From an uncultured cyanobacterium (GTDB lineage Bacteria; Cyanobacteriota; Cyanobacteriia; Cyanobacteriales; Nostocaceae), in assembly GCA_963706595.1 (NCBI GenBank), contig OY970166.1, positions 3,936,001-4,000,000 on the forward strand: a stretch of 64,000 nucleotides of DNA, given 5' to 3'. Below, piece by piece: positions 46,714 to 63,674 of the stretch. The stretch's first letter is position 1, and the number at the start of each line of letters is the position of its first letter. A program made the position numbers and the translations under genes. The notes under the pieces were generated by a model. That model made no database searches. It saw nothing but the letters and a program-made list of their open reading frames with translations, and had not been told where the DNA came from.

Positions 46714-47112
46714 TTGCAGTACCAAGACCAGAAAGCTGATTCTACAATTACCCAATCAGCTGAACATCCGATAATTTGCATACCATCATTTAATATAACC
46801 CTTGTGGGGTAGGCATCCGTCCCGCCCTGGATGTGCAAATTCAAAGCCGAATAGCCTAAAACAGGCAATAACGATAAAAAGGCGAAATTTGAAGAAAGTT
46901 GGAATTTGATTAGCCTGAATTTCGGCTTTTTATCCCCGTTCTGCCTCACTCCCTCGCCTACGATTTTCCGTTACAGGGCGGGCTTCTACCCTGAGTCTGA
47001 TCATGGCAAGAAGTTAATTGTTTTTTTCTAAAGTATTGTTACCTGATCGTGATATGATTCAGCTGACTGAATGTGCAGTCATTATAAGTTAGCTGTACTG
47101 GTTTCAAGTCTC

Positions 47113-47553
47113 GTGAGCTTGTCAGAAGATTCAATCGACCCCACTCCGACAACACAACAAGAAACTCAATCTGGTTTTGAAGACACAGAACCAGATAACG
47201 CCTCCATGCAGGAGTTCTATCAACTCTACCAGGAGTTGTTGATAATTACACTTGCCTTAACAGTGACTGTTTTTATCTCTGTGTGGATTGCTTACTCGCT
47301 GAACATTGCCCTAAATTATCTATTAGGGGCGTGTGCAGGTGTGCTTTACTTGAGGCTGTTGGCAAAAGATGTTGAGCGTTTAGGTAGAGAAAAACAGGCG
47401 CTGAGTAAAACCCGGTTAGCCTTATTAGTAGCTCTGATTTTCCTAGCATCGCGGTGGAATCAACTACAAATATTACCCATATTTTTGGGATTTCTCACAT
47501 ACAAAGCCACACTCATCTTCTACGTAATTAGGATGGCTTTTGTCTCTGACTAG
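47113..47553 (+). CDS. atpI: ATP synthase protein I (cyanobacterial atp1)
   Basis: First gene of the atp operon; four TM segments; YL.G...G..YLRLLAK.VE and GFLTYKA motifs; probable GTG start. Confidence 0.88.
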
Positions 47554-47670
47554 CCAAAGCGCGGACAACCTGAAAAAGCTAAACTAAGCCTTGCGTGAGG
47601 AATATCCACACTGCAACGAAAGCTCCTCTTCTCCAGGTAATATTGGAGAAACGATTGATATGGAAAGAAA

Positions 47671-48417
47671 ATGCTGAATTTTCTGAACTTCTACTCTCTT
47701 CCACTTGCCGAATTGGAAGTGGGTAAACATCTGTACTGGCAAATAGGCAACTTGAAGCTACACGGTCAGGTGTTTCTCACATCCTGGTTTGTTATTGGTG
47801 TGCTAGTGCTAGTTTCCTTAGCCGCAAGCAGTAACATCAAAAGAATTCCCAGTGGGTTGCAGAACCTCATGGAATACGCCCTGGAATTCATTCGGGATTT
47901 GGCTAAAAACCAAATTGGCGAAAAAGAATATCGCCCTTGGGTGCCTTTTGTTGGCACTTTGTTTTTGTTCATTTTTGTGTCAAATTGGTCAGGGGCGCTG
48001 GTTCCTTTCAAGCTGATACATTTACCAGAAGGTGAACTAACAGCACCTACAAGCGACATCAATACAACAGTTGCCTTAGCGTTGCTGACATCGCTGGCGT
48101 ATTTTTACGCTGGATTCAGCAAAAAGGGTTTAGGGTATTTTGGCAACTACGTCCAACCAGTGTCGTTTATGTTGCCCTTCAAGATTATTGAAGACTTCAC
48201 CAAGCCTCTTTCCCTCAGCTTCCGTTTATTCGGCAACATTTTGGCTGACGAACTTGTAGTAGGTGTACTTGTATTGCTAGTACCCTTGTTTGTACCTCTG
48301 CCAGTCATGGCTTTGGGACTATTTACCAGCGCCATCCAAGCACTAATTTTTGCGACTTTAGCCGCCGCTTACATCGGTGAAGCGATGGAAGATCATGGCG
48401 AAGAGCATCATGAATGA
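47671..48417 (+). CDS. atpB: F0 ATP synthase subunit a (cyanobacterial atpI)
   Basis: [34 protein letters not shown]. Confidence 0.97.
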
Positions 48418-48529
48418 GGGGCATTCAATACCCTCAAAAGTCATGAGTCATTGGTTATTTAACAATGATCAAGGGCAAATGGCAACTGACACACAACAAC
48501 GTCTAAATCAACTCAACTCAGTAAATTAA

Positions 48530-48787
<258 letters not shown>

Positions 48788-48911
48788 TCGGTACTGAGTA
48801 CTGAGTACAAAAAGTTAGGAGTTAGGAGTTAAGAGTTAGAAAATTAACTCATAACTCATAACTCACCGACTCAGGACTCAGGACTAATATATTAGATAGA
48901 AATTAGCAACC

Positions 48912-49403
48912 ATGACACACTGGATCACCTTATTAGCAGTAGAAGAGGTTGCCAAGGAAGGGGGGCTGTTCGATCTAGATGCTACCCTGCCCTTAATGGC
49001 AATTCAGTTTCTAGTTTTAGCTTTAGTGTTGAACGCAACACTATACAAGCCACTGGGCAATGCGATTGATGGCCGGAATGATTACATCCGTAGTAATCAA
49101 TTAGAAGCACAGGAACGCTTGTCAAAAACCGAAAAATTGGCAGAGGAATATGAGCAATCTCTAGCAGGTGCTAGACGACAAGCTCAAACAATCATTGCTG
49201 ATGCTCAAGCCGAAGCTCAAAAAATTGCGGCTGAGAAAATAGCAGCAGTGCAGAAACAAGCCCAGGTAGAAAAAGAAAAGGCTGCTAGTGAAATTGAGCA
49301 GCAGAAACAAGCCGCTTTTGCTTCATTGGAGCAACAAGTAGATTCACTCAGTCGCCAAATACTAGAAAAGCTTTTAGGAGCAGATATAGTAAGTCGGCGC
49401 TAA
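48912..49403 (+). CDS. atpF2: F0 ATP synthase subunit b' (cyanobacterial atpG)
   Basis: [18 protein letters not shown]-terminus followed by a coiled coil; operon position. Confidence 0.95.
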
Positions 49404-49517
49404 TGAAAATTTAGCTTGGAATCATTAAGCGACATTGTAAAGACGCACTCGCCAAGTAACATTTGTTGGCGGCGTGGGTCACGTTAAGCCTTGGCAGCGA
49501 GTTGTGGACGAAAAATC

Positions 49518-50081
49518 ATGGGGACTTTTTTACTGTTGATGGCGGAAGCCAGCGCCGTCGGAGGTGACTTGGCAGAAGAAGCGGGACATGGTGGTTTTAG
49601 TCTAAATACAGATATATTTGACACCAACCTGATTAACCTGGCCATTATTATTACTGTGCTGTTAGTTTTCGGGCGGAAGGTTTTGGGTAAAACCCTGAAA
49701 GGCCGCCGGGATACAATTGAAACAGCAATTAAGAATGCAGAGCAACGTGCTTCTCAAGCTGCACAGCAACTCAAAGAAGCACAGCAGAAGTTAGAGCAAG
49801 CTCAAGCAGAAGCCGAAAGAATCAAACAAGCAGCGCAAGAAAACGCCCAAGCTGCAAGTGAAGCTATCTTGGCGCAGGCTGCTGTAGATATTGAACGCTT
49901 GCAAGCAGCAGGTGCAGCTGACTTAAATGCAGACCTAAATAAAGCGATCGCGCAGTTACAGCAACGAGTAGTTGCTCAAGCCTTGCAAAAGGTCGAATCT
50001 GAACTACAAAGCGGCATAGCCGACGATGCTCAACAAATTTTGATTGAACGTAGCATCGCACAACTGGGAGGCGAGGTATGA
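49518..50081 (+). CDS. atpF: F0 ATP synthase subunit b
   Basis: F.LN.DIF.TNLINL, a TM segment and a coiled coil; operon position. Confidence 0.95.
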
Positions 50082-50635
50082 CAAGTAAAATAGCCACAGA
50101 TGAAATAGCCGCCCCTTATTCACAGGCTCTGTTGTCACTCGCGCAATCAAAAAACTTGACCGAAGAGTTTGGCGAAGATGCCCGGAGTTTGTTAGGACTG
50201 CTTTCAGAAAACCAGGATCTACAGAACTTTATTGGCAACCCCTTTATTAAGGATGAGAACAAAAAGGCTCTGATTAGACAAATACTGGGTGAAAGTGGTA
50301 ACGCCTACTTACGCAATTTTTTGTTGTTACTGGTAGATAAACGACGGATCGTTTTTCTAGAAGCAGTTTTACAGCAATATTTGGCTTTATTGCGGCAGCT
50401 AAATCAAACCGTATTAGCGGAAGTAATTTCAGCAATTCCTCTGAGTGAGCTTCAACAGCAAGCAGTAGTGGAAAAAGTTCTGGCCATCACTAATGCTCGC
50501 CAGGTAGAAGTGCAATCTAAAATAGATAGCGAGTTAATTGGTGGTGTGATTATTAAAGTCGGCTCCCAAGTAATTGATGCTAGTTTACGTGGTCAGTTGC
50601 GCCGCCTTTCCTTGCGCTTAACCAGTAATTCGTAA
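50078..50635 (+). CDS. atpH: F1 ATP synthase subunit delta (cyanobacterial atpD)
   Basis: [34 protein letters not shown]. Confidence 0.96.
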
Positions 50636-50821
50636 TTTGCAATTCTCCTGAAGTTTCCTTGCTGTGCTGATAGTCTGGCAAGGTAACTGGGCAGGGGATG
50701 AAATAATTGGAGAATCACCGGAAAATTATTTCCCCACTCCCCATTGCCCCTTATCCCCAGAGGGGACCCTGAGTTCCCCACTCCCTACTCCCTACTCTGA
50801 AAAGCAAAAAACATAGACACA

Positions 50822-52342
50822 ATGAGTATTTCAATTAGACCTGACGAAATCAGCAGCATTATTCAGCAACAAATCGAGCAATACGACCAAGAAGTTAAAG
50901 TTGCTAACGTTGGTACAGTTCTCCAAGTGGGTGATGGTATCGCCCGCATCTATGGTCTGGAAAAGGCTATGGCTGGGGAACTATTAGAATTTGAAGATGG
51001 CACAATTGGCATCGCCCAGAACTTAGAAGAAGACAACGTGGGCGCTGTGCTTATGGGTCAAGGTCTGGAAATTCAAGAAGGTAGCTCCGTTACTGCTACT
51101 GGTAGAATTGCCCAGGTTCCCGTAGGTGAAGCTATGGTTGGACGGGTAGTAGATGCCTTGGGTCGTGCGATCGATGGTAAAGGAGATATTAACACGACAG
51201 AAAGTCGTTTGATTGAATCTGCTGCACCTGGTATCATCGCTCGTCGATCTGTACACGAACCCATGCAAACTGGGATTACAGCTATTGACTCGATGATTCC
51301 TGTCGGTCGTGGTCAACGGGAATTAATCATTGGAGACCGTCAAACAGGTAAAACTGCGATCGCCATTGACACAATCATCAACCAAAAAGGTGAAGATGTA
51401 ATTTGTGTCTACGTTGCCATTGGTCAAAAAGCATCCACAGTTGCTAACGTGGTGCAAACCCTCCAAGAAAAAGGCGCAATGGACTACACCGTAGTCGTCG
51501 CCGCTAGTGCCAGTGAACCAGCTACATTACAATATCTAGCTCCTTACACCGGAGCCACCATTGCTGAGTACTTTATGTACAAAGGCAAAGCCACCTTGGT
51601 GGTTTATGATGACCTTTCCAAGCAAGCCCAAGCTTATCGCCAAATGTCCTTGCTGCTACGTCGTCCACCAGGACGGGAAGCATATCCTGGAGATGTATTC
51701 TACATTCACTCCCGCTTATTGGAACGCGCTGCTAAGTTAAGTGACGAATTGGGTAAAGGTAGCATGACTGCCCTACCAATCATCGAAACCCAAGCTGGTG
51801 ACGTTTCGGCATACATCCCCACCAACGTAATTTCGATTACCGACGGTCAAATCTTCCTTTCTTCTGACCTGTTCAACGCTGGTATTCGTCCCGCAGTAAA
51901 CCCCGGTATTTCGGTATCACGTGTGGGTTCGGCGGCGCAAACCAAGGCGATGAAAAAAGTTGCCGGTAAGATTAAATTGGAACTAGCACAATTTGATGAC
52001 CTGCAAGCTTTCGCCCAATTTGCGTCTGACTTAGACAAAACCACTCAAGACCAATTGGCACGGGGTCAACGGTTACGGGAACTACTCAAGCAGCCACAAA
52101 ATGCTCCTCTGGCAGTATATGAGCAAGTAGCAATTTTGTATGCGGGGATTAACGGTTACTTAGATGATGTTCCTGTAGAAAAAGTAACTACCTTCACCAA
52201 AGGTCTGCGGGAATTCTTAAAAACCGGCAAACCTGAGTACACCGACTCCGTGAAAACCAAAAAGGTACTCGGTGACGAAGAAGAAAAAGCTTTGAAGGAA
52301 GCGCTAACTGAATTTAAACAGACCTTCAAAGCAACAGCGTAA
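50822..52342 (+). CDS. atpA: F1 ATP synthase subunit alpha
   Basis: [32 protein letters not shown]. Confidence 0.99.
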
Positions 52343-52463
52343 TTAGTCATTACCCTTCGACTACGCTCAGGGTTAAGTCATTAGTCATTAGTCATTGGGA
52401 AACGCTTAATGGCTATTGACTGTTGACAGTTGACAATTGACTCAGGACTCAGAAGTTAAGAAT

Positions 52464-53411
52464 ATGGCTAATCTCAAATCAATACGCGATCGCATTCAGT
52501 CGGTCAAAAACACCAAGAAAATTACAGAAGCCATGCGGCTGGTAGCGGCGGCTAGAGTACGTCGCGCCCAAGAACAGGTAACTGCTACCCGTCCTTTTGC
52601 TGACCGCTTGGCACAAGTATTGTATGGTTTGCAGACTCGTCTCCGGTTTGAAGATGTAGACCTCCCACTACTGAAAAAGCGGGAAGTGAAAACAGTTGGG
52701 CTGTTGGTAATTTCCGGCGACCGGGGTTTGTGTGGCGGTTACAACAGTAATGTTATCCGTCGGGCAGAAAATCGCGCCAAAGAACTGCAAGCAGAAGGCG
52801 TAAATTACAAATTCGTGCTGGTAGGACGCAAAGCCATCCAGTATTTCCAACGTCGGGAACAACCCATTGACGGTACTTACACTGGTTTGGAACAAATTCC
52901 TACCGCCACCGAAGCTACGGAAGTTGCAGATCAACTACTTTCTTTGTTCCTCTCAGAAAGTGTGGATCGAATTGAGCTAATTTATACCAAATTCGTCTCA
53001 TTGGTTAGCTCCCGCCCAGTGGTGCAAACTTTGCTGCCTTTAGATCCTCAAGGTCTAGAAGCCGCAGATGACGAAATTTTCCGCCTGACAACCCGTGGCG
53101 GTCAATTTGAAGTAGAACGGCAAAAAGTGACTAACCAAGCTCGCCCTCTGCCTCGTGACATGATCTTTGAGCAAGATCCTGTGCAAATTCTAGATTCTTT
53201 ACTACCCCTGTATCTGAGTAATCAGCTATTGCGGGCGTTACAAGAATCAGCAGCCAGTGAACTAGCCGCCCGGATGACAGCGATGAACAACGCCAGCGAC
53301 AACGCCGGTGATTTGATTAAGAGTCTTTCGTTGTCTTACAACAAAGCTAGACAAGCCGCTATTACCCAAGAACTTTTAGAAGTTGTGGGTGGTGCTGAAG
53401 CACTAACTTAA
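52464..53411 (+). CDS. atpG: F1 ATP synthase subunit gamma (cyanobacterial atpC)
   Basis: [44 protein letters not shown]. Confidence 0.98.
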
Positions 53412-53439
53412 GGAATTGCTCATTGTTTAGTAGTGATAA

Positions 53440-53484
53440 ATAGCTAATTGCTAGTTGTTGGGAAATTAGCAATTGGCTATTTTT
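53440..53484 (+). terminator. atp operon intrinsic terminator
   Basis: ATAGCTAATTGCTA...TAGCAATTGGCTAT followed by a T tract. Confidence 0.65.
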
Positions 53485-53915: not shown

Positions 53916-56156
53916 ATGGAAAATGATGCGGCAACGCTCTACTGCCCAAATGAAGCTTGTCTGGCTGCTAACCCCTTAACTCACAAGTTTTGCCAGCGAT
54001 GCTCTACACCCCTACCCAAACGTTACCTCTGGGCTGTAGGGGATGGCTTGAGTGTGGGTAGCCCTGGAGATGTATTAGCTGATCGCTATTTGGTAATTAG
54101 TAAATCTGTGGTTTTAGATCAGAAGCCGGGATTACTACCCCAATCACCTGAATTAGATAATTCACAGGGTATCAAAGCTTATCTGAGATTAATACCTTAT
54201 AGCTTAAACGTACCACAGGTATATGGCATCCTGCCTCTATCTGAGGGACAGTCTCACAAAGAAATATTACTTTTAGAACAGCCGCCTTTATCCGCAGATA
54301 TTTCAGGACTACAAGTGCAGCTATGTAGCCAGTTAAATATTGCTTGGCGTGATGCTACATCAATGCGTCAACTTAATTGGCTATGGCAGATAGCTAATTT
54401 GTGGCAACCTTTGAAGAGTGAAGGGGTGGCTACTAGCTTAATCGATCCTCATGTACTCCGGGTGGAAGGATCATTAGTTCGCTTGTTAGAATTGCGTTTT
54501 GACGCGGCAACAGCCCCAGAATTGCCTCAATTAGGTGCATTTTGGCAAAAATTACAGCCAGAGTCCAAACCAGTTATAGCTGAATTTGTGCAGCAAATTA
54601 GTAACTTTCTGATTCAGGGACAGATTAGTTCACCGGAAATACTAATTGCAGTTTTAGATCAAGGTCTGGCAGAATTAGGACGCTCACAAACTCCCACGAT
54701 TAAAATTGTCACTAAAACAGACACTGGTCCGAGTCGTCAACGCAACGAAGATGCCTGCTACCCTGCCAGTGGAACAGTTTTGAGCAAACCACCACAGGCA
54801 GTCGGCTCCTTAGCCATTGTCTGTGACGGCATTGGCGGACACCAAGGCGGCAATGTGGCATCTAATTTGGCGATTGAAACAATTCATCAGCAGATACAGC
54901 AACTGACAAAGGTTCCTTATGATCACATTGAACCTTTATTACTGCTGGCTGATTTAGATAATGCCGCCGCAATTGCCAATGACAGAATTAGCCAACGCAA
55001 TGACAGCGAAAATCGCCAAGCGCGTCAACGTATGGGTACAACCTTAGTGATGGCGTTGCCTATTGCCCACGAAATGTACATTACTCACGTTGGAGATAGT
55101 CGTGCCTACTGGATTACCCGCCACGGTTGTTATCAAGTTACCCTTGATGATGATGTGGCTTCTCGTGAGGTACGACTCGGCTATGCTATCTATCGTGAAG
55201 CTGTGCAACAAGGTGGTGCTGGTTCTTTGGTGCAAGCTTTAGGAATGAGTTCTAGTAATTCATTACATCCTACTTCCCAGAGGTTTATCCTTGATGAAGA
55301 TGCGATCTTTTTGCTGACTTCAGATGGATTGAGTGATTTTGACCGTGTGGAAGATTACTGGGAAACAGAAATTTTACCAATTCTTCATGGTGAAGATGAT
55401 ATTGTCCAGGTCGCTGACAAATTGGTGGAACTTGCTAACACCAAAAATGGACATGATAATGTGACTTTGGCATTACTACACTATAAAGTCAAATATTGCG
55501 AACCAGAATTATCTCTCAAAGCAGTTATTCCAGATATTTCCTCGCTGCCATCTACAAATGCTGTAACTCAAGGGTTACAACCCACATTACTAGAAGATAG
55601 CCCTAACAAAAAAACGAAAATTATTCCCGAAAATCAGCCTACTGCAATTGCGAGACTGCCCTTAAATTTAATAGTTCCCTTGGTGCTGGTTGTCTTAGCT
55701 GGTTCACTAGGATACTTGATCATGCAAATGCGATCGCCTAGCCTCTCCGACGGAGAATCGCCGGCAAATACCATTCCGACTACAACAATACCGCCAATTC
55801 TGAGTAATCCAGTCAATGAAAGGTTGGAGAATCTCAAGCCAGGAGCGGTGATTAGAAGCAACAGTAACGTTACCTTGAACAAGATAACTTTTCCCCCCGA
55901 TAGTTATTGGCAAGTTATCGATATCCAACCCAATCCCCAACCAGGTACAGGAGATTTATTAGTAAATTTACGGCTTTGCTCCACAACTACTGCACCTTTA
56001 CCGTTAGCAGATACACAAGAATCAATAAAATTGTCTCAACTGCAAAGTTTTGCAGTCTCTGTCTTGCCATCAAACCAAGAGAATCCTTGTGATTCGGTTT
56101 CAGGCCAAACATCATCACCAAATGATCCGACTTCAAATCGGTCAAATTCTCGATAA
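53916..56156 (+). CDS. prpJ: Membrane PP2C phosphatase with N-terminal 4-Cys finger and kinase-like remnant (PrpJ-like)
   Basis: CPN..C...C..C N-terminus; R..NED, CDGIGGH, MGTT, HVGDSR, SDGL and GHDN PP2C motifs; one C-terminal TM (LIVPLVLVVLAGSLGYLIM). Size and architecture match my recall of Anabaena PrpJ. Confidence 0.75.
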   Translation: MENDAATLYCPNEACLAANPLTHKFCQRCSTPLPKRYLWAVGDGLSVGSPGDVLADRYLVISKSVVLDQKPGLLPQSPELDNSQGIKAYLRLIPYSLNVPQVYGILPLSEGQSHKEILLLEQPPLSADISGLQVQLCSQLNIAWRDATSMRQLNWLWQIANLWQPLKSEGVATSLIDPHVLRVEGSLVRLLELRFDAATAPELPQLGAFWQKLQPESKPVIAEFVQQISNFLIQGQISSPEILIAVLDQGLAELGRSQTPTIKIVTKTDTGPSRQRNEDACYPASGTVLSKPPQAVGSLAIVCDGIGGHQGGNVASNLAIETIHQQIQQLTKVPYDHIEPLLLLADLDNAAAIANDRISQRNDSENRQARQRMGTTLVMALPIAHEMYITHVGDSRAYWITRHGCYQVTLDDDVASREVRLGYAIYREAVQQGGAGSLVQALGMSSSNSLHPTSQRFILDEDAIFLLTSDGLSDFDRVEDYWETEILPILHGEDDIVQVADKLVELANTKNGHDNVTLALLHYKVKYCEPELSLKAVIPDISSLPSTNAVTQGLQPTLLEDSPNKKTKIIPENQPTAIARLPLNLIVPLVLVVLAGSLGYLIMQMRSPSLSDGESPANTIPTTTIPPILSNPVNERLENLKPGAVIRSNSNVTLNKITFPPDSYWQVIDIQPNPQPGTGDLLVNLRLCSTTTAPLPLADTQESIKLSQLQSFAVSVLPSNQENPCDSVSGQTSSPNDPTSNRSNSR

Positions 56157-56259
56157 ACGGGTAAAAACCTGGAATAATACAGGTAATAACTACACAAAAA
56201 ACACCAGAAAAAATTGTTATTGAAAATTATTGGTTCTCACATTTTAGTAGATTGAATCC

Positions 56260-57825
56260 ATGCCATCCCTGAACTTGGCGATCGCCCGTCTCACCAACAC
56301 TGGCACAGATAACTTCGCTATTTGGGTGGTCAAGGCTCCCTATCCCAGTGGTTATGTTTTACATGACTGCGTCTGGCCAGTTGAACTGACTCAAGTTTGG
56401 CAAGAATGGCAGCAGATGTTTGCTGGGCATAGTGGTTTATATATTTTTCCAGATTTAAAGCCGCAGTCAGTTCCACCACTTGCCATCAATTTAGTTTCAC
56501 CTCCTTCCGGACAGAAGGCTGTTTATAGTAGTCGTCTGATGCAACACTTGGGCATTAAGCTCTGGGAGTGGATATTTGACAGTCCGATTCTTGGTAGTCT
56601 CGAACGCAGTCGGGGCATAGCTATGGGGCGTTATACTCGTTTGCGGTTTCGATTAGAAATTCGTGACCCGGATCTGATTGCTTTGCCTTGGGAAATTATG
56701 CAGAGCCAACCAGGGCAATCAGCAATGTCTCTCTCGCCAGATTTGCTATTTAGTCGCACTACTAGTCAAGTTGAACCCCTACCGTATTTGCGAACCGATC
56801 AGGCTTTAAATATTTTGTTGGTTTTAGGACACGATGACAACTTGCAATTGGCACAAGAAGCCATGATCTTAGAAAAAATTCTGGCAAGTAGCAATTCTCA
56901 GGGTTATGCCCCCTGCACAGTCAAGACACTTCTGCAACCTACACCACAAGAATTAATTCAAGAGTTAGAAACCGCAGCGTATAACATTTTCTTTTACGCT
57001 GGTCATGGACTACCGGGACCAGATGGCGGATTATTCTTTTTGCGTCCGGGTATGACCCTGAATGGGATTGAATTAGCACAAGTATTAACCCGGAGTGGTT
57101 TGAAATTGGCGGTGTTTAATGCTTGTTGGGGCGCACAACCAGCCGCGATCAATCACCAAGCTATCCCTGCCAGCAGTATGGCAGAAGTGTTAATCCGTCA
57201 TGGTGTTCCTGCGGTTTTGGGGATGCGTGATCAAATTGCTGACCACGAAAGCCATAGTTTTATTCAAGCTTTTACTGAGGCTTTGCGATCGCGTAAGTCA
57301 ATTGATGAGGCGGTTGCTGAAGCTAGGCAAGAACTGTTAACACTATATAAGTTCAATCAACTTGCTTGGACTTTGCCTGTGCTTTATCTGCATCCTGATT
57401 TTGATGGTGAACTGATTAAAATTTCTGATGAAGGCATTACCGAATTACCAGATAGTGTCATCCCCAATATCAATTCCCCGATTCCCATCGCTGTTTTGCG
57501 ATCGCTTTCATCGGGAGGGCAAACTTGGGTACTACGATCTGGAGTCACCCGCATCGGTCGTACGAAAGATAATGATATTGTCATCCCAGAACCATCGGTC
57601 TCTAAGCGCCACGCCGAAATTTTATGCCGTAATACTCTGACTGGGACTACGACAGTGAGAACTTATTATTTGCAAGATTTTTCTACCTACGGCACAACTT
57701 GGTGTTTAGTCGCTAACGGTTGGCAACAAATCCTCCGTGAGGAAGTTCCTCTAAAATCGGGAATGCAGTTACAGTTTGGCAGTTCGAGAGGTGAAATTTT
57801 GCAGTTTGTGATTGAAGATTCCTAG
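56260..57825 (+). CDS. CHAT (caspase/HetF-type) protease with C-terminal FHA domain
   Basis: LPWE; catalytic His in YAGHG and Cys in FNACWG; GVPAVLGM, W.LPVLY; FHA motifs IGR...NDIVI....VSKRHA and STYGT. Confidence 0.88.
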   Translation: MPSLNLAIARLTNTGTDNFAIWVVKAPYPSGYVLHDCVWPVELTQVWQEWQQMFAGHSGLYIFPDLKPQSVPPLAINLVSPPSGQKAVYSSRLMQHLGIKLWEWIFDSPILGSLERSRGIAMGRYTRLRFRLEIRDPDLIALPWEIMQSQPGQSAMSLSPDLLFSRTTSQVEPLPYLRTDQALNILLVLGHDDNLQLAQEAMILEKILASSNSQGYAPCTVKTLLQPTPQELIQELETAAYNIFFYAGHGLPGPDGGLFFLRPGMTLNGIELAQVLTRSGLKLAVFNACWGAQPAAINHQAIPASSMAEVLIRHGVPAVLGMRDQIADHESHSFIQAFTEALRSRKSIDEAVAEARQELLTLYKFNQLAWTLPVLYLHPDFDGELIKISDEGITELPDSVIPNINSPIPIAVLRSLSSGGQTWVLRSGVTRIGRTKDNDIVIPEPSVSKRHAEILCRNTLTGTTTVRTYYLQDFSTYGTTWCLVANGWQQILREEVPLKSGMQLQFGSSRGEILQFVIEDS

Positions 57826-58014
57826 CAACTGAGGACTGGTAAAGTATTAGCTATTTCTGTTTTGTCTTTTTCTTCTATAACTAATCACTAGGAAAAACTC
57901 AATTTTATGGGCTAGTACCATCTGCCAAAGTATATTTTCAACCTGAGATCAAATTAACTGTTTTGCGGAAATCTAATTTGGGCAGTTGTAGCTGTCAATA
58001 TTGCTAAATAATGC

Positions 58015-58677
58015 ATGAGGAGACCACAAATGATTGACAAGATTAACGGCTCAGACACTTTCAACGCCTTACCGTCTCAATTGGAATTAGAATTATTAGA
58101 GACGTTGCTAGTGCCAGAGGATGGGACTTATCCTTGGAATCCGGCTGATGATCAGTCTGAAGCTTATTTTAGCGAATTAGAACAACAATTTGCGATGCAG
58201 GATTGGCTAGATGAAGAACTGAATCCAAAATCGTCAGCTTTTTATGGCAAACTAGATAGCCTTTGGTCTGAGGTTGCAATTAACTCAAATTACAAATGTC
58301 AACCAAATCAGTCTGTTGTCGATCATCTGCAAGTGGCTTTAAATTCAGCTTTTGCTCATAGTGTACCCCCAGGATGGCTGAATGCGATCGCCCTGAAAGC
58401 GGCTGACATTTTTGCTTCTCAACAATCCATGAGTGATCAACTGGTGCAGTGTGTTCAATCTGTACTACCTGCTTGGGGCGTAGATGATCTGTTTGTTTTC
58501 ACTCGTCCCTTTGCCCATTCTATGCGTAGTAGCGAATCTCCAGAGGAGACCTCGATTATTAGTAAAGTGAAAAACCGAGATTGGATAACTTTATCGGAAA
58601 TTGAGCAGGCAAAGATTAGTGTAGCGATCGCTTACTATGCCTTTAAGCAATTAAACAGTTATCAGTCTGAAGACTAA
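58015..58677 (+). CDS. Hypothetical protein, probable PatU3-like fold
   Basis: 220-aa ORF downstream of the CHAT gene; YPWN...VP..W...I...A......LVQ.V....P...RDW..L...EQ..IS pattern (see findings). Confidence 0.7.
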   Translation: MRRPQMIDKINGSDTFNALPSQLELELLETLLVPEDGTYPWNPADDQSEAYFSELEQQFAMQDWLDEELNPKSSAFYGKLDSLWSEVAINSNYKCQPNQSVVDHLQVALNSAFAHSVPPGWLNAIALKAADIFASQQSMSDQLVQCVQSVLPAWGVDDLFVFTRPFAHSMRSSESPEETSIISKVKNRDWITLSEIEQAKISVAIAYYAFKQLNSYQSED

Positions 58678-59021
58678 TCTTAGTTTTTGATTTAGACCGC
58701 AAATAGTTTACCTTACAGATGATACTCATTTTGTGAGTTGGAAATTTTTTATTCCCTTTTAGATATAGATAACCCAGAATAATCTCACCATAGAATGATT
58801 GCGAGATCAGCGTCATCTATCCCAAGACATACAACGAAATTTTCATCATCTGAATATTAATCATTTGGTCAAATTTTCTGTGAACTTCGGAGGAGGGGCT
58901 GGGCGTGGGGTATTAGAATGTGGCAAACATCACTAATTAACCGGATTTGAGATAAATCCTCCCACTTACCAGAATATTAATTTCCTTGTGTTCCTTCTCC
59001 CCTCTCAAGCAAGTCAGTTTC

Positions 59022-60389
59022 TTATTTGGGTCCGATAAAGCGGGTGGCGAAATTTTGCGATCGCGTTGGTGACAACACCCGTGCTTTCAGAATGGCTGCC
59101 ATCAAGAAGGCATAAGATAACACCCCAACCACCACCAAGAGCAAAGCATTGATAGATCCTGTCGCATTCCACAAAGCATGGAGTGCAGAGGCACTCAGAT
59201 AACCAATAGAGAGAATCTGCCAACTCATCCGGGGCTTAAGGACAGCTAACCCGATAAAATAGCCTAGATAGCCACTGTAAGCCATGTGTCCGGCTACAGA
59301 GCCTAAAATTCGCGGAATTAGCAGTTGAAACCCCGCCAATTGACCAGCCGCCCCTATTCCTACCTGTTGGGTAATTTGTGGCACATACTGCCCCAGAGTT
59401 TCCAACAGAGTGAAACCGATAGCCGAAGCTGTTCCCAGGAGAATGCCATCTAAGGGTTCCCAAATCCCGATGCGTTCCCGCCAAGGTGAAGGTAAGCCGC
59501 GACCGATTAAATATGCCCCGATTAACGGTAATGCCTTGAGTAATTCTTCCATCAACCCCGCACCAAAGAACATTCTTACCAGCAATTCTGTAAAGGTGAT
59601 CGGCTCTTGAGGTGAAGGTAAGCTACCCGGTAAGATGACGCGAAACACAAAGATAAATACATCCAACAGGGGACTCAGCAAAATCAACGTTGTACTTAAT
59701 GCTGCGCCCATTAGCACCCACCAGGGCTTCTGTTTACCGCAAAGTTGGTAAACAAAATAGTAAGCAGCTGATGCTATGTAAGTTGCTACTATCACCTGAT
59801 TAGCTTGGGGATTACCGACAGTAGCAAACATCAACACTACAAAGATGACGGTGAGTATTCCCGGTATCAGGTAGGCTTTGCGAGTTAAATCCTTACCCGT
59901 GGAAATAATCGGAAACAGTTGGGTAAAACTCACCGAATCTGGTTGTTTTAAATGGGTATGTCCGTTATTTTTAGAAGCCGATGGTAGGGGTTTGACTTGT
60001 TTTGTCATCACCGTCGGCTGAGAGATCAAATCATACTCAAATATAAATTGCGGCCCATCAGAACCTAGAGAAATGCGATCGCCTGCGTGTAATTCCTGAC
60101 ATTCAGACAAGCATTTTCCGTTTAAAAAAGTACCATTTGCACTATTTAAATCACAAAGTACCCAGGTAAATTTGTGATCGGTCGGTGAAGAGAGGGGACG
60201 AACCACAGCATGACGGCGAGATACCATCCGATACATCATGGCATCTAAGACAACTTGGCAGGTGGGGTCGCGTCCAATTACTACCTCTTTACTGGTTAGC
60301 AGCGAGTAGCGAGATTCTGATCCAAAAGCTGCTACATTACCAGACACTAGCCGCAGAAATGCATTATGTCTTGTGTTTTTGCCTGTCAT
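59022..60389 (-). CDS. FHA-domain PrsW-family intramembrane metalloprotease
   Basis: FHA motifs IGRD, VSRRHA, DLNSANGTFLNG; PrsW motifs MEELLK, GFTLLE, GHMAYSG and HALWN; several TM segments. Confidence 0.9.
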   Translation of the reverse strand: MTGKNTRHNAFLRLVSGNVAAFGSESRYSLLTSKEVVIGRDPTCQVVLDAMMYRMVSRRHAVVRPLSSPTDHKFTWVLCDLNSANGTFLNGKCLSECQELHAGDRISLGSDGPQFIFEYDLISQPTVMTKQVKPLPSASKNNGHTHLKQPDSVSFTQLFPIISTGKDLTRKAYLIPGILTVIFVVLMFATVGNPQANQVIVATYIASAAYYFVYQLCGKQKPWWVLMGAALSTTLILLSPLLDVFIFVFRVILPGSLPSPQEPITFTELLVRMFFGAGLMEELLKALPLIGAYLIGRGLPSPWRERIGIWEPLDGILLGTASAIGFTLLETLGQYVPQITQQVGIGAAGQLAGFQLLIPRILGSVAGHMAYSGYLGYFIGLAVLKPRMSWQILSIGYLSASALHALWNATGSINALLLVVVGVLSYAFLMAAILKARVLSPTRSQNFATRFIGPK

Positions 60390-61185: not shown

Positions 61186-61641
61186 TTATTCCACCAGATT
61201 AAATTCTGCCATAGCTCTAGAAAAGTTTTTATTTTCATGTCCTGGACGACTGAGTTTAATCAAAGCAAAGCGCTGTAAGGGTGTTAAACTTGCCCATTGT
61301 GACAATGTGAGGCTAGTAGCCATTTCTTGAGCTTTTTCCTGGATACTAGCTGGGACAATACCAGCATCCATCCATAACGGATCAGCGTCAATGGGTATCT
61401 TTGCTGCTGGATTTCCCGTGTGTTCTAAAATGATTTGTTGGAGATAGTCTTGGTAAGCTTCAATTTCTGTTGCCGTCCTACAAGGTAATTGTACTAAAGC
61501 TGCACGCTCATCTTCAGTCATTTGATGCCAATGAGATAATTTCAGCTTGATACCAGATGTATCTAGCTTATAACGCACCTGCATGGGTATACAACGCAGG
61601 GAATCTACAAAATCCGCTTCAAATTCAAAGAAATCTGCCAT
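61186..61641 (-). CDS. narM: Nitrate reductase-associated protein NarM
   Basis: FFEFEADFVDSLRCIPM.VRYKLD..GIKL and W..L.PLQRFALIKLSRPGHEN.NF signatures. Confidence 0.88.
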   Translation of the reverse strand: MADFFEFEADFVDSLRCIPMQVRYKLDTSGIKLKLSHWHQMTEDERAALVQLPCRTATEIEAYQDYLQQIILEHTGNPAAKIPIDADPLWMDAGIVPASIQEKAQEMATSLTLSQWASLTPLQRFALIKLSRPGHENKNFSRAMAEFNLVE

Positions 61642-62050: not shown

Positions 62051-63674
62051 GTAACAATTACCAATAATCCCTATCAGGGATTGAAACGGCTAGATTAGCC
62101 TCAAAGACATTTTTAGCACAAGTAACAATTACCAATAATCCCTATCAGGGATTGAAACAGCCTATGAAGAATATACCGGTTTAGATGACTGGGTAACAAT
62201 TACCAATAATCCCTATCAGGGATTGAAACAACCCTGATGCACAGCCGCCCTAACAAGATTTGGTAACAATTACCAATAATCCCTATCAGGGATTGAAACT
62301 TTTGAGGAACAATAGTAATCCGTATGGCTGGGTTAGTAACAATTACCAATAATCCCTATCAGGGATTGAAACCATCTACAAGGGAACCGTAAATCTTACG
62401 CAGTACATCAGTAACAATTACCAATAATCCCTATCAGGGATTGAAACACTTGAAACAAGTAACACAAAACAAGTCACACCCCTGTAACAATTACCAATAA
62501 TCCCTATCAGGGATTGAAACAGGTTGCTCTAAATTGAAAACTTTTACTTTCATCCGTAACAATTACCAATAATCCCTATCAGGGATTGAAACCAGGAATT
62601 GACTGAGACAAACCAGAGACAGATTCAGGTAACAATTACCAATAATCCCTATCAGGGATTGAAACGCAGCACCACTAGCTAGTCGCGTTGCACCCGTTCC
62701 AGTAACAATTACCAATAATCCCTATCAGGGATTGAAACGATGCAGGGAAGGGAATAACTTTCTCTAAGGGTAACAATTACCAATAATCCCTATCAGGGAT
62801 TGAAACAAAACCTGTATGATCATAATCTTCACCAGTCCAGGCTCGTAACAATTACCAATAATCCCTATCAGGGATTGAAACTTTATAGAATTTAATGTTT
62901 GCTCCAATAGGTTAATTTCGGTAACAATTACCAATAATCCCTATCAGGGATTGAAACTGGCAATATTTAGCTATTATTGCGGGAATTAAATTTGTAACAA
63001 TTACCAATAATCCCTATCAGGGATTGAAACTTGATGTTTGGGTGTATCCTTCGGCATTTGATGAAGTAACAATTACCAATAATCCCTATCAGGGATTGAA
63101 ACAGAACAAAAATCTTGAGATTCAGAATAAAACTCTGGTAACAATTACCAATAATCCCTATCAGGGATTGAAACAAGGTAGTAGCTTCAACTGCTGCAAG
63201 AACATCAGGTAACAATTACCAATAATCCCTATCAGGGATTGAAACTCAAACCAGATTTGATTTTGTTCGCAGATACTGGTAACAATTACCAATAATCCCT
63301 ATCAGGGATTGAAACATACTGTATTTATGGATGTTACTATATAGAAAGTGTAACAATTACCAATAATCCCTATCAGGGATTGAAACTGCACAAATCTGCT
63401 ACCAACTTGCTTAGTAAATGGGGTAACAATTACCAATAATCCCTATCAGGGATTGAAACAAGCTCATATTGGTAGACTTACCCGTACACGGATGAGTAAC
63501 AATTACCAATAATCCCTATCAGGGATTGAAACGCGGTACTCAAATTCTTTGATTATTTGACAACCAAGTAACAATTACCAATAATCCCTATCAGGGATTG
63601 AAACTGATTGAAATGACTGCCCTGGTATTGATGTTTGGTAACAATTACCAATAATCCCTATCAGGGATTGAAAC
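62051..63674 (+). CRISPR. CRISPR array: 23 identical 37-bp repeats and 22 spacers (31-39 bp), type I-D-like repeat, no adjacent cas genes
   Basis: Repeat GTAACAATTACCAATAATCCCTATCAGGGATTGAAAC with an internal AATCCCT/AGGGATT hairpin and an ATTGAAAC 3' end; leader on the left. Confidence 0.99.

Follow-up and report, generated by a model that had tools for sequence, protein, structure and literature searches.

The subject of this analysis is a cluster of four genes in a 64,000-nucleotide stretch of DNA (the window; assembly GCA_963706595.1, contig OY970166.1, positions 3,936,001 to 4,000,000) from an uncultured cyanobacterium of the Nostocaceae. The genes encode a PP2C phosphatase, a cysteine protease with CHAT and FHA domains (CHAT-FHA), an open reading frame (ORF) of 220 amino acids (aa) and, convergently, an FHA-PrsW intramembrane metalloprotease (Table 1). 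An earlier note, made from the sequence, had read these as a phosphorylation-gated protease system related to HetF and PatU3 of Anabaena, and its coordinates, strands, lengths and catalytic motifs were all borne out by the ORF list, Pfam and ortholog alignments. On balance we think it probable that the locus belongs to a paralogous pathway of protease, anti-sigma factor and sigma factor, second to HetF-PatU3-HetZ, in which both the cleavage and the binding are predicted. Two paralogies, a conserved catalytic dyad and arginine, linkage of the genes and a three-way co-occurrence were observed here and carry this reading.

Table 1. Genes and sites of the cluster and its unlinked predicted partner (window positions, except in the last line)
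Feature	Position	Strand	Length	Domains or basis
PP2C phosphatase	53916..56156	+	746 aa	PP2C domain 296-481 (Pfam)
CHAT-FHA cysteine protease	56260..57825	+	521 aa	CHAT 98-364, FHA 430-507 (Pfam)
Codon of Thr394, candidate phospho-switch residue between CHAT and FHA	57439..57441	+
PatU3 paralog ORF, predicted anti-sigma factor	58015..58677	+	220 aa	profile match, no Pfam family
Codons of Arg171-Ser172, predicted cleavage site	58525..58530	+		align with Anabaena PatU3 Arg117-Ser118
FHA-PrsW intramembrane metalloprotease, convergent	59022..60389	-	455 aa	FHA 36-109, PrsW 221-433 (Pfam)
HetZ-related protein 2 (All4254 type), sigma-like, unlinked	G000:C1:184557-185741			NF037965 member

In gene order, strand pattern and annotation the cluster matches all1731 (prpJ)-all1730-all1729 / alr1728 of Anabaena sp. 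PCC 7120; the genes were equated through order and annotation, not through sequence. The supplement of a 2026 study (PMC13056922) gives these adjacent genes as PP2C (Fox), CHAT, hypothetical and PrsW (Fox), respectively, and all1731 is prpJ (PMC6161253). Each gene was searched for in one draw of 301 genomes, most of which held none of them, and the ORF was found in 86. Linkage was analyzed in 60 of these 86, picked for diversity, with flanks of about 8 kb on the upstream and 5 kb on the downstream side (4 of the 60 loci were cut by contig ends). CHAT-FHA lay directly upstream of the ORF in 43 of the 60 loci, namely 24/24 in the family of the window genome and 19/36 outside it, PP2C was present in 33/60 and FHA-PrsW in 28/60. 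The grouping described in the earlier note recurred elsewhere: all four genes stood together in 24 of these diverse loci and in 77 of 80 named close relatives, the closest being Nodularia and other Nostocales. These two counts indicate that the clustering is not due to chance.

The His249 and Cys289 dyad of CHAT-FHA was kept in all 63 aligned orthologs, and PF12770 was matched above its cut-off. When CHAT-FHA was aligned with the HetF profile using hhalign, residues 84-394 matched at 100% (E 2e-58, 33% identity), and by this alignment CHAT-FHA, whose dyad is intact, is a paralog of HetF. The likeness to HetF claimed by the earlier note therefore held for the CHAT region; at the N-terminus, where the note had placed it, no resemblance was detected (hhalign 0.1%; ranks 1524 of 5133 and 2623 of 3153 with hidden Markov models, HMMs). 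In place of the membrane helix and TPR domain of HetF, the C-terminus of CHAT-FHA consists of the FHA domain, in which Arg434 was found in 58/63 and Ser448 in 62/63 orthologs. CHAT-FHA was also considered as HetF itself and this was ruled out: it reached 144 bits on the HetF model NF045509 (cut-off 1200), and the true hetF of the genome, with 1429 bits, is located at G000:C1:698274-700811. Peaks of HetZ chromatin immunoprecipitation near all1730 were not counted, because wild type and hetZ mutant alike showed them and all1730 was absent from the differential-peak file.

No named family was found for the ORF in Pfam, NCBIfam and Atlas searches. Profile-profile alignment of the ORF with PatU3 using hhalign gave a match of 85% (E 6e-6, score 44.9), whereas the reversed profile scored 25.4 and none of 60 block shuffles exceeded 25.6; the shuffle controls all remained below 6%. 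Repeat alignments gave 88% with the alignments of the tool itself and 90.7% with 150 representatives (the best 150 of 318 ORF-family sequences at 50% identity). With an HMM of these representatives, PatU3 was the second match among 18,341 ORFs of the genome (E 0.011). Pairwise BLAST of the ORF against PatU3 gave no match, so the link is visible to profiles alone. On these profiles the 220-aa ORF is a PatU3 paralog, in line with the resemblance proposed in the note. Fold searches were less informative: no Foldseek match to the ORF model was obtained at E 0.001, the best VIA match (Z 7.5, root-mean-square deviation 2.6, 76 aligned) says little for a helical bundle, and fold searches with the PatU3 model returned generic matches only. 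For PatU3 members no informative Pfam family was found either, DUF1822 included.

In the model the ORF product was all-helical, and it is acidic (net -17) with no predicted membrane helix. Helices 23-97 are predicted to bind the sigma factor, and a PatU3-like bundle occupies approximately residues 112-214. Most PatU3-HetZ cross-links fall in PatU3 residues 3-149, the segment that aligns with the ORF. The ORF was ruled out as a PatU3 or PatU ortholog, as it is not encoded behind hetZ and its model has no C-terminal beta domain, whereas the PatU3 model has one from residue 168. The patU3 gene of the genome itself lies behind hetZ at G000:C1:140410-141219, and its product closely matches the cross-linked Anabaena PatU3 peptides. 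In this region (G000:C1:140218-141219, locus L094) two frames, a short patU5-like ORF and patU3, take the place of an undivided patU, as in Anabaena; in many relatives of the genome patU is a single frame of 330-400 aa. The Anabaena counterpart of the ORF, all1729, was once a candidate filament gene and was then dropped from that set, since the grouping placed part of its members with unicellular taxa (PMC2821919).

In Anabaena, HetF cuts PatU3 after Arg117 (PMC9457339). The residue of the ORF that aligns with this arginine, Arg171, was kept in 60/61 and 145/150 sequences in two alignments. A predicted helix (156-171) ends at this residue, and after it come a small residue and a gap-rich linker; a small residue and a variable linker after the aligned arginine are common to the ORF and PatU3 families. 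By analogy with Anabaena, CHAT-FHA would thus be likely to cut its neighbour, the PatU3 paralog, after Arg171.

The probable output of such a pathway lies outside the cluster and was missing from the four-gene set of the earlier note. It is HetZ-related protein 2, an unlinked sigma factor candidate and the third HetZ-family paralog of the genome, which corresponds to All4254 in Anabaena. It scored 612.9 bits on NF037965 (cut-off 400), matched the HetZ profile at 99.7% over residues 121-395 and reached 24 bits, below the cut-off, on the sigma70 extracytoplasmic function (ECF) model. At the four positions that read the -35 element, R, D, Y and Q were present in 21/21 HetZ sequences, whereas HetZ-related protein 2 has K293, Y296, R297 and E300, kept in 48-55 of 55 sequences. 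These recognition residues differ, and a promoter class other than DIF1 is therefore predicted for HetZ-related protein 2.

For the complex of the ORF with HetZ-related protein 2, modelled with alignments of both partners from the same 55 genomes, a score of 0.83 was obtained (runs 0.84, 0.83 and 0.75), compared with 0.00 for the best of three controls. The runs agreed in at least 35% of contacts, and the predicted local distance difference test value of the partner was at least 70. The score mark was reached by 116/157 solved complexes and 2/215 mismatched pairs, counts that are only a rough guide when own alignments are used. No sequence resembling HetZ-related protein 2 was found in the PDB below E 0.06. 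Confident contacts placed ORF residues 23-97 on sigma residues 56-196, and the contact residues F52, F76, L80 and W84 of the ORF were hydrophobic in 136-148 of 150 members. The ORF is thus predicted, from this model, to be an anti-sigma factor gripping HetZ-related protein 2, which it would hold until it is cut.

Several features of the HetZ-related protein 2 genes were observed in this and other genomes. At G038:C1:159571-162440 the gene and patU3 are about 1 kb apart, which hints that the paralogous sigma genes were linked in the past. The gene downstream of HetZ-related protein 2 in the window genome (G000:C1:186026-187279) has relatives in many of the loci L003 and L166-L235, and in the family of the window genome ccmK-like genes lie upstream. 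Short frames of 176-215 aa (G217:C1:1490786, G217:C2:48753, G159:C1:1717, G068:C5:125753 and G257:C1:2076759) match only the N-terminal 165-180 model positions of HetZ-related protein 2, which is approximately where binding of the ORF is predicted, and may be decoys or fragments. Second copies at G133:C1:3790026 and G267:C9:112521 lie in frames of 809 and 835 aa, respectively, and are probably fusions.

Co-occurrence was evaluated in the same 301 genomes. CHAT-FHA was kept in 85 genomes of 93 matches (8 weaker than E 1e-60 were dropped), HetZ-related protein 2 in 87 of 88 (G209, E 3e-23, was dropped), PatU3 in 72 of 74 (one fragment and one weak match were dropped) and HetF in 72 of 74 (two matching in the C-terminal half only were dropped); FHA-PrsW was found in 75. 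The ORF co-occurred with HetZ-related protein 2 in 86/86 genomes, with CHAT-FHA in 84/86, with PatU3 in 71/86 and with FHA-PrsW in 67/86. Since related genomes do not count as independent and the majority of the 301 hold none of the genes, it is the discordant lineages that matter most. In 12 genomes from four families the ORF, CHAT-FHA and HetZ-related protein 2 were present, and HetF and full PatU3 were not found; in the 5 of these that were tested, HetZ-related protein 2 was the only HetZ-family match. The mirror case is G209, in which PatU3, HetF and two other HetZ-family matches were present and the ORF, CHAT-FHA and HetZ-related protein 2 were not found. Two of the ORF genomes have no CHAT-FHA, and in both the PP2C gene directly adjoins the ORF; the cleavage-site motif of the ORF has drifted in one (G011), and in the other (G291) the ORF is cut to 91 aa, leaving only the half predicted to bind sigma. 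In G193, an assembly of 270 contigs, the sigma factor and the protease were present, and an alignment search, too, did not find the ORF.

Two further observations concern HetF and PatU3 themselves. PatU3 was not found by protein or alignment search in G041, a complete genome of the heterocyst family in which HetF is present along with three HetZ-family matches. HetF is matched in family f5 over its C-terminal half only, in frames of 525-542 aa (G011:C28:53502-54332 and G291:C56:23286-24341), and neither of the HetF-type CHAT domains nor PatU3 was found, an apparent joint loss.

The phosphatase of the cluster has a four-cysteine N-terminal ribbon, a domain extending to approximately residue 258, the PP2C domain, a linker, a predicted membrane helix and a C-terminal tail. 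The five acidic motif residues and R274 were present in 34/34 aligned orthologs. The one hydrophobic segment, 585-603, is a predicted membrane helix, by a crude scan that missed the known membrane helix of HetF. PrpJ, which the earlier note had mentioned, is its match (PrpJ1/All1731) in gene order and annotation; both have an N-terminal extension and a membrane helix (here predicted) and lie upstream of all1730 or its counterpart. PrpJ1 is needed for heterocyst maturation in Anabaena (PMC6161253, PMC4005646).

In the linker between the CHAT and FHA domains of the protease, Thr394 was kept in 62/63 and Pro397 in 63/63 orthologs (Thr394-x-x-Pro397), and the columns after them were mostly 16-38% conserved. 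Of 21 HetF sequences, 19 could be anchored, and in none of these was a motif of this type seen behind the CHAT domain. The linker of PP2C has a similar island, Thr567 being kept in 30/34 aligned orthologs amid variable sequence. We regard Thr394 as a candidate phospho-switch site, with phosphorylation there putative; alternatively, the conserved motif may serve in packing against the protease domain. GarA/OdhI and Rv1747 are switches in which an FHA domain binds a phosphothreonine of the same molecule, and their FHA domains were top PDB matches. They share with CHAT-FHA a conserved threonine in a variable linker adjacent to the FHA domain; here the FHA domain is fused to a protease, and self-binding is a candidate. 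The ORF was tested as phospho-ligand of the protease FHA and rejected, as no threonine column exceeded 40% in its alignment; the FHA domain is therefore unlikely to read the substrate itself.

Taken together, a Ser/Thr kinase and the PrpJ1-type phosphatase would probably act on the protease by a phosphothreonine-FHA contact that switches it or sets its location, which is the weakest part of the proposal; given the rest, the chances of such switching seem about evenly balanced. If PatU3 processing in Anabaena is a guide, the fragments of the cut ORF protein would be cleared by general proteolysis and the third HetZ-family sigma factor would be released. In its complete form, the kinase and PrpJ1 would toggle Thr394 against the FHA domain of its own protein, the ORF would be cut at Arg171 and a third sigma factor with its own promoter class would be set free, as a twin of HetF-PatU3-HetZ downstream of PrpJ1; this full cascade is tentative, and we think it rather doubtful that every step will hold. 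No kinase gene was found in the cluster.

The N-terminal region of PP2C (window 53916-54689, four cysteines and about 220 residues) gave weak Atlas leads of the EssB/YukC type (0.81) and is possibly a pseudokinase. A further PP2C paralog at G000:C1:2694600-2696675 carries a tandem repeat of acidic heptads, and another (G000:C1, 4143623-4146994) is followed by a Ser/Thr kinase whose frame shows weak similarity to each of the two FHA proteins and which is a candidate for the input kinase.

A number of points weigh against a second pathway of this kind. The homology of the ORF to PatU3 is remote (16% identity). Sigma activity of HetZ-related protein 2 is deduced from homology; holoenzyme and transcription activity has been demonstrated for HetZ and, in E. 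coli, for HetZ' only. The confident model contacts are remote from Arg171, most of them falling beyond the region best aligned with PatU3, and sigma region 4, which is cross-linked to PatU3 in HetZ, is missing from the confident contacts. As the contacts are away from Arg171, cleavage would therefore act by destabilising the ORF protein, as has been proposed for PatU3 (PMC9457339). In the FHA domain of the protease the usual asparagine is mostly Tyr or Phe and Arg434 is replaced in 4/63 orthologs. The genomes are kin, so that the co-occurrence counts overstate the association, the more so as most of the 301 lack all of the genes. The same side is taken by the conservation around Arg171: Arg164 is equally conserved (149/150), as are Asp158 and Pro165, and the residues preceding Arg171 are far more conserved in the ORF family than in PatU3; the role of Arg171 may accordingly be a structural one. 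Moreover, one genome (G161) has Leu at position 171 beside a CHAT-FHA with an intact dyad, and G011 keeps the arginine though CHAT-FHA is missing. These observations, together with the separation of CHAT-FHA and the ORF in 17/36 loci outside the window's family (a few of them cut by contig ends), would suit an ORF that is a PatU3-derived anti-sigma factor or scaffold with a structural Arg171, beside a CHAT-FHA that finds other substrates through its FHA domain, in a phospho-signalling hub with no dedicated pair. Such a hub is unlikely, though it deserves to be taken seriously: in the alignment the arginine falls exactly on the mapped HetF site, with a small residue and a variable linker after it in both families, and protease and ORF accompany each other even where unlinked, as the 84/86 genomes holding both attest. 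A pair that is real and acts mainly on HetZ or HetZ', as a second brake on heterocyst development, with the binding of HetZ-related protein 2 as a cross-reaction, appears improbable to us, since the pair persists in lineages with HetZ-related protein 2 as the only family match found and was not found in G209, where two other HetZ-family matches accompany PatU3 and HetF. It draws on three facts: in Anabaena the genes on both flanks are Fox genes, inhibition of two HetZ paralogs is a property of PatU3 itself, and the complex tool also passes close cousins of a partner, the partner modelled being HetZ-related protein 2. This last fact also weighs against the second pathway.

How far the fourth gene belongs to the predicted pathway was judged from FHA-PrsW itself. 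It scored 126.8 bits on PF13367 (cut-off 23.5), and E281, E282, K285, E330, H368, H404 and N408, which make up the EExxK, FxxxE, H and HxxxN motifs, were present in 29/29 orthologs, as were R40, S57, H60 and N85 of its FHA domain (G-R, S-x-x-H and N-G motifs). The earlier note had taken all four genes as one obligatory system, which would place a second round of proteolysis, by FHA-PrsW at the membrane, in the same cascade. Its syntenic position and intact motifs stood, and all four genes do occur together in 18/24 loci of the window's family and also in other orders (L037, L038 and L047); both proteases bear FHA domains, and prpJ and alr1728 are both Fox genes. Obligatory membership fared poorly: FHA-PrsW was not found in 19 of the 86 ORF genomes, was present in 8 genomes without the ORF, and remained next to PP2C in both genomes that had lost CHAT-FHA. 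PrsW enzymes act on membrane substrates, and the ORF product has no predicted membrane helix. We give the single four-gene cascade little credence and, because the genome distribution of FHA-PrsW differs from that of the ORF, consider it probably an accessory output of the same phospho-network. A role of the cluster in anti-phage defence or cell death, as a module of the caspase-like kind, is very improbable. CHAT proteases and sigma/anti-sigma pairs do occur in defence islands (PMC11506125), yet PADLOC gave no match for any of the four proteins, and the single-copy presence of the cluster in 36/36 genomes of the window's family, unlike the patchy presence of defence systems, disfavours that role.

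In type III-E CRISPR systems (Csx29-Csx30-CASP-sigma), a CHAT domain controls the release of an ECF-type sigma factor. DdvA-DdvS of Myxococcus resembles the locus in the same respect (PMC11506125). These are RNA-triggered or membrane TPR-CHAT defence regulators, whereas the cluster has a soluble protease with an FHA domain, encoded by a core gene in single copy. The closest known system is HetF-PatU3-sigma-HetZ of Anabaena sp. PCC 7120 (PMC9457339, PMC13342950): HetZ was recognized as a sigma factor only in 2026, PatU3 is the likely anti-sigma factor and HetF the protease that removes it. Both have a homologous CHAT His/Cys protease, a candidate or known substrate of the PatU3 family with an aligned arginine and a (here predicted) partner in the HetZ ECF-type sigma family. 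They differ in that HetF has a membrane helix and TPRs where CHAT-FHA has an FHA domain, and the ORF has a longer N-terminal helical part and no beta domain. The sigma factor is here the third paralog (NF037965), with other residues at the -35 reading positions than those of HetZ. The protease gene is here linked to that of its putative substrate, whereas patU3 is linked to its sigma gene; the present pathway, predicted from sequence and models, is more widely distributed.

Parts of the locus are known gene by gene. PrpJ1 and alr1728 appear in PMC6161253, PMC4005646 and PMC13056922 as single genes only, with maturation or Fox phenotypes, and all4254, all1729 and all1730 are entered as 'Unknown' in the table of PMC13056922. 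In the full-text literature searched, in which a few subscription journals were covered, no description of all1729 as PatU3-like, of all1730 as its protease or of all4254 as a sigma factor was found. By gene name, all1730 had no occurrence, all1729 occurred once and all4254 was not among the matches listed. The pathway is thus without description in the literature searched, and a prior mention is possible. Candidate functions and partners, down to the exact predicted bond and residues, can now be offered for All1729, All1730 and All4254, still 'unknown' in Anabaena, and a candidate downstream route for PrpJ1. If the gating is true, a caspase-like protease would be the link between Ser/Thr phosphorylation and the release of a sigma factor, and the heterocyst switch would be one of two paralogous circuits; if the full cascade is true, the twin pathway would survive in lineages without HetF-PatU3-HetZ.

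A promoter scan of the locus remained at chance level (17 found versus 16.4 expected), no exact DIF1-type promoter was found in the locus and a plasmid search gave no match. The cluster is flanked by the ATP synthase operon (47071-53411), followed by a strong hairpin at 53438-53482, and on the other side by narM (61186-61641). At 62967-63215 of the window, a translated frame contains a short sequence repeated three times with differing spacers, which resembles a CRISPR-type array.

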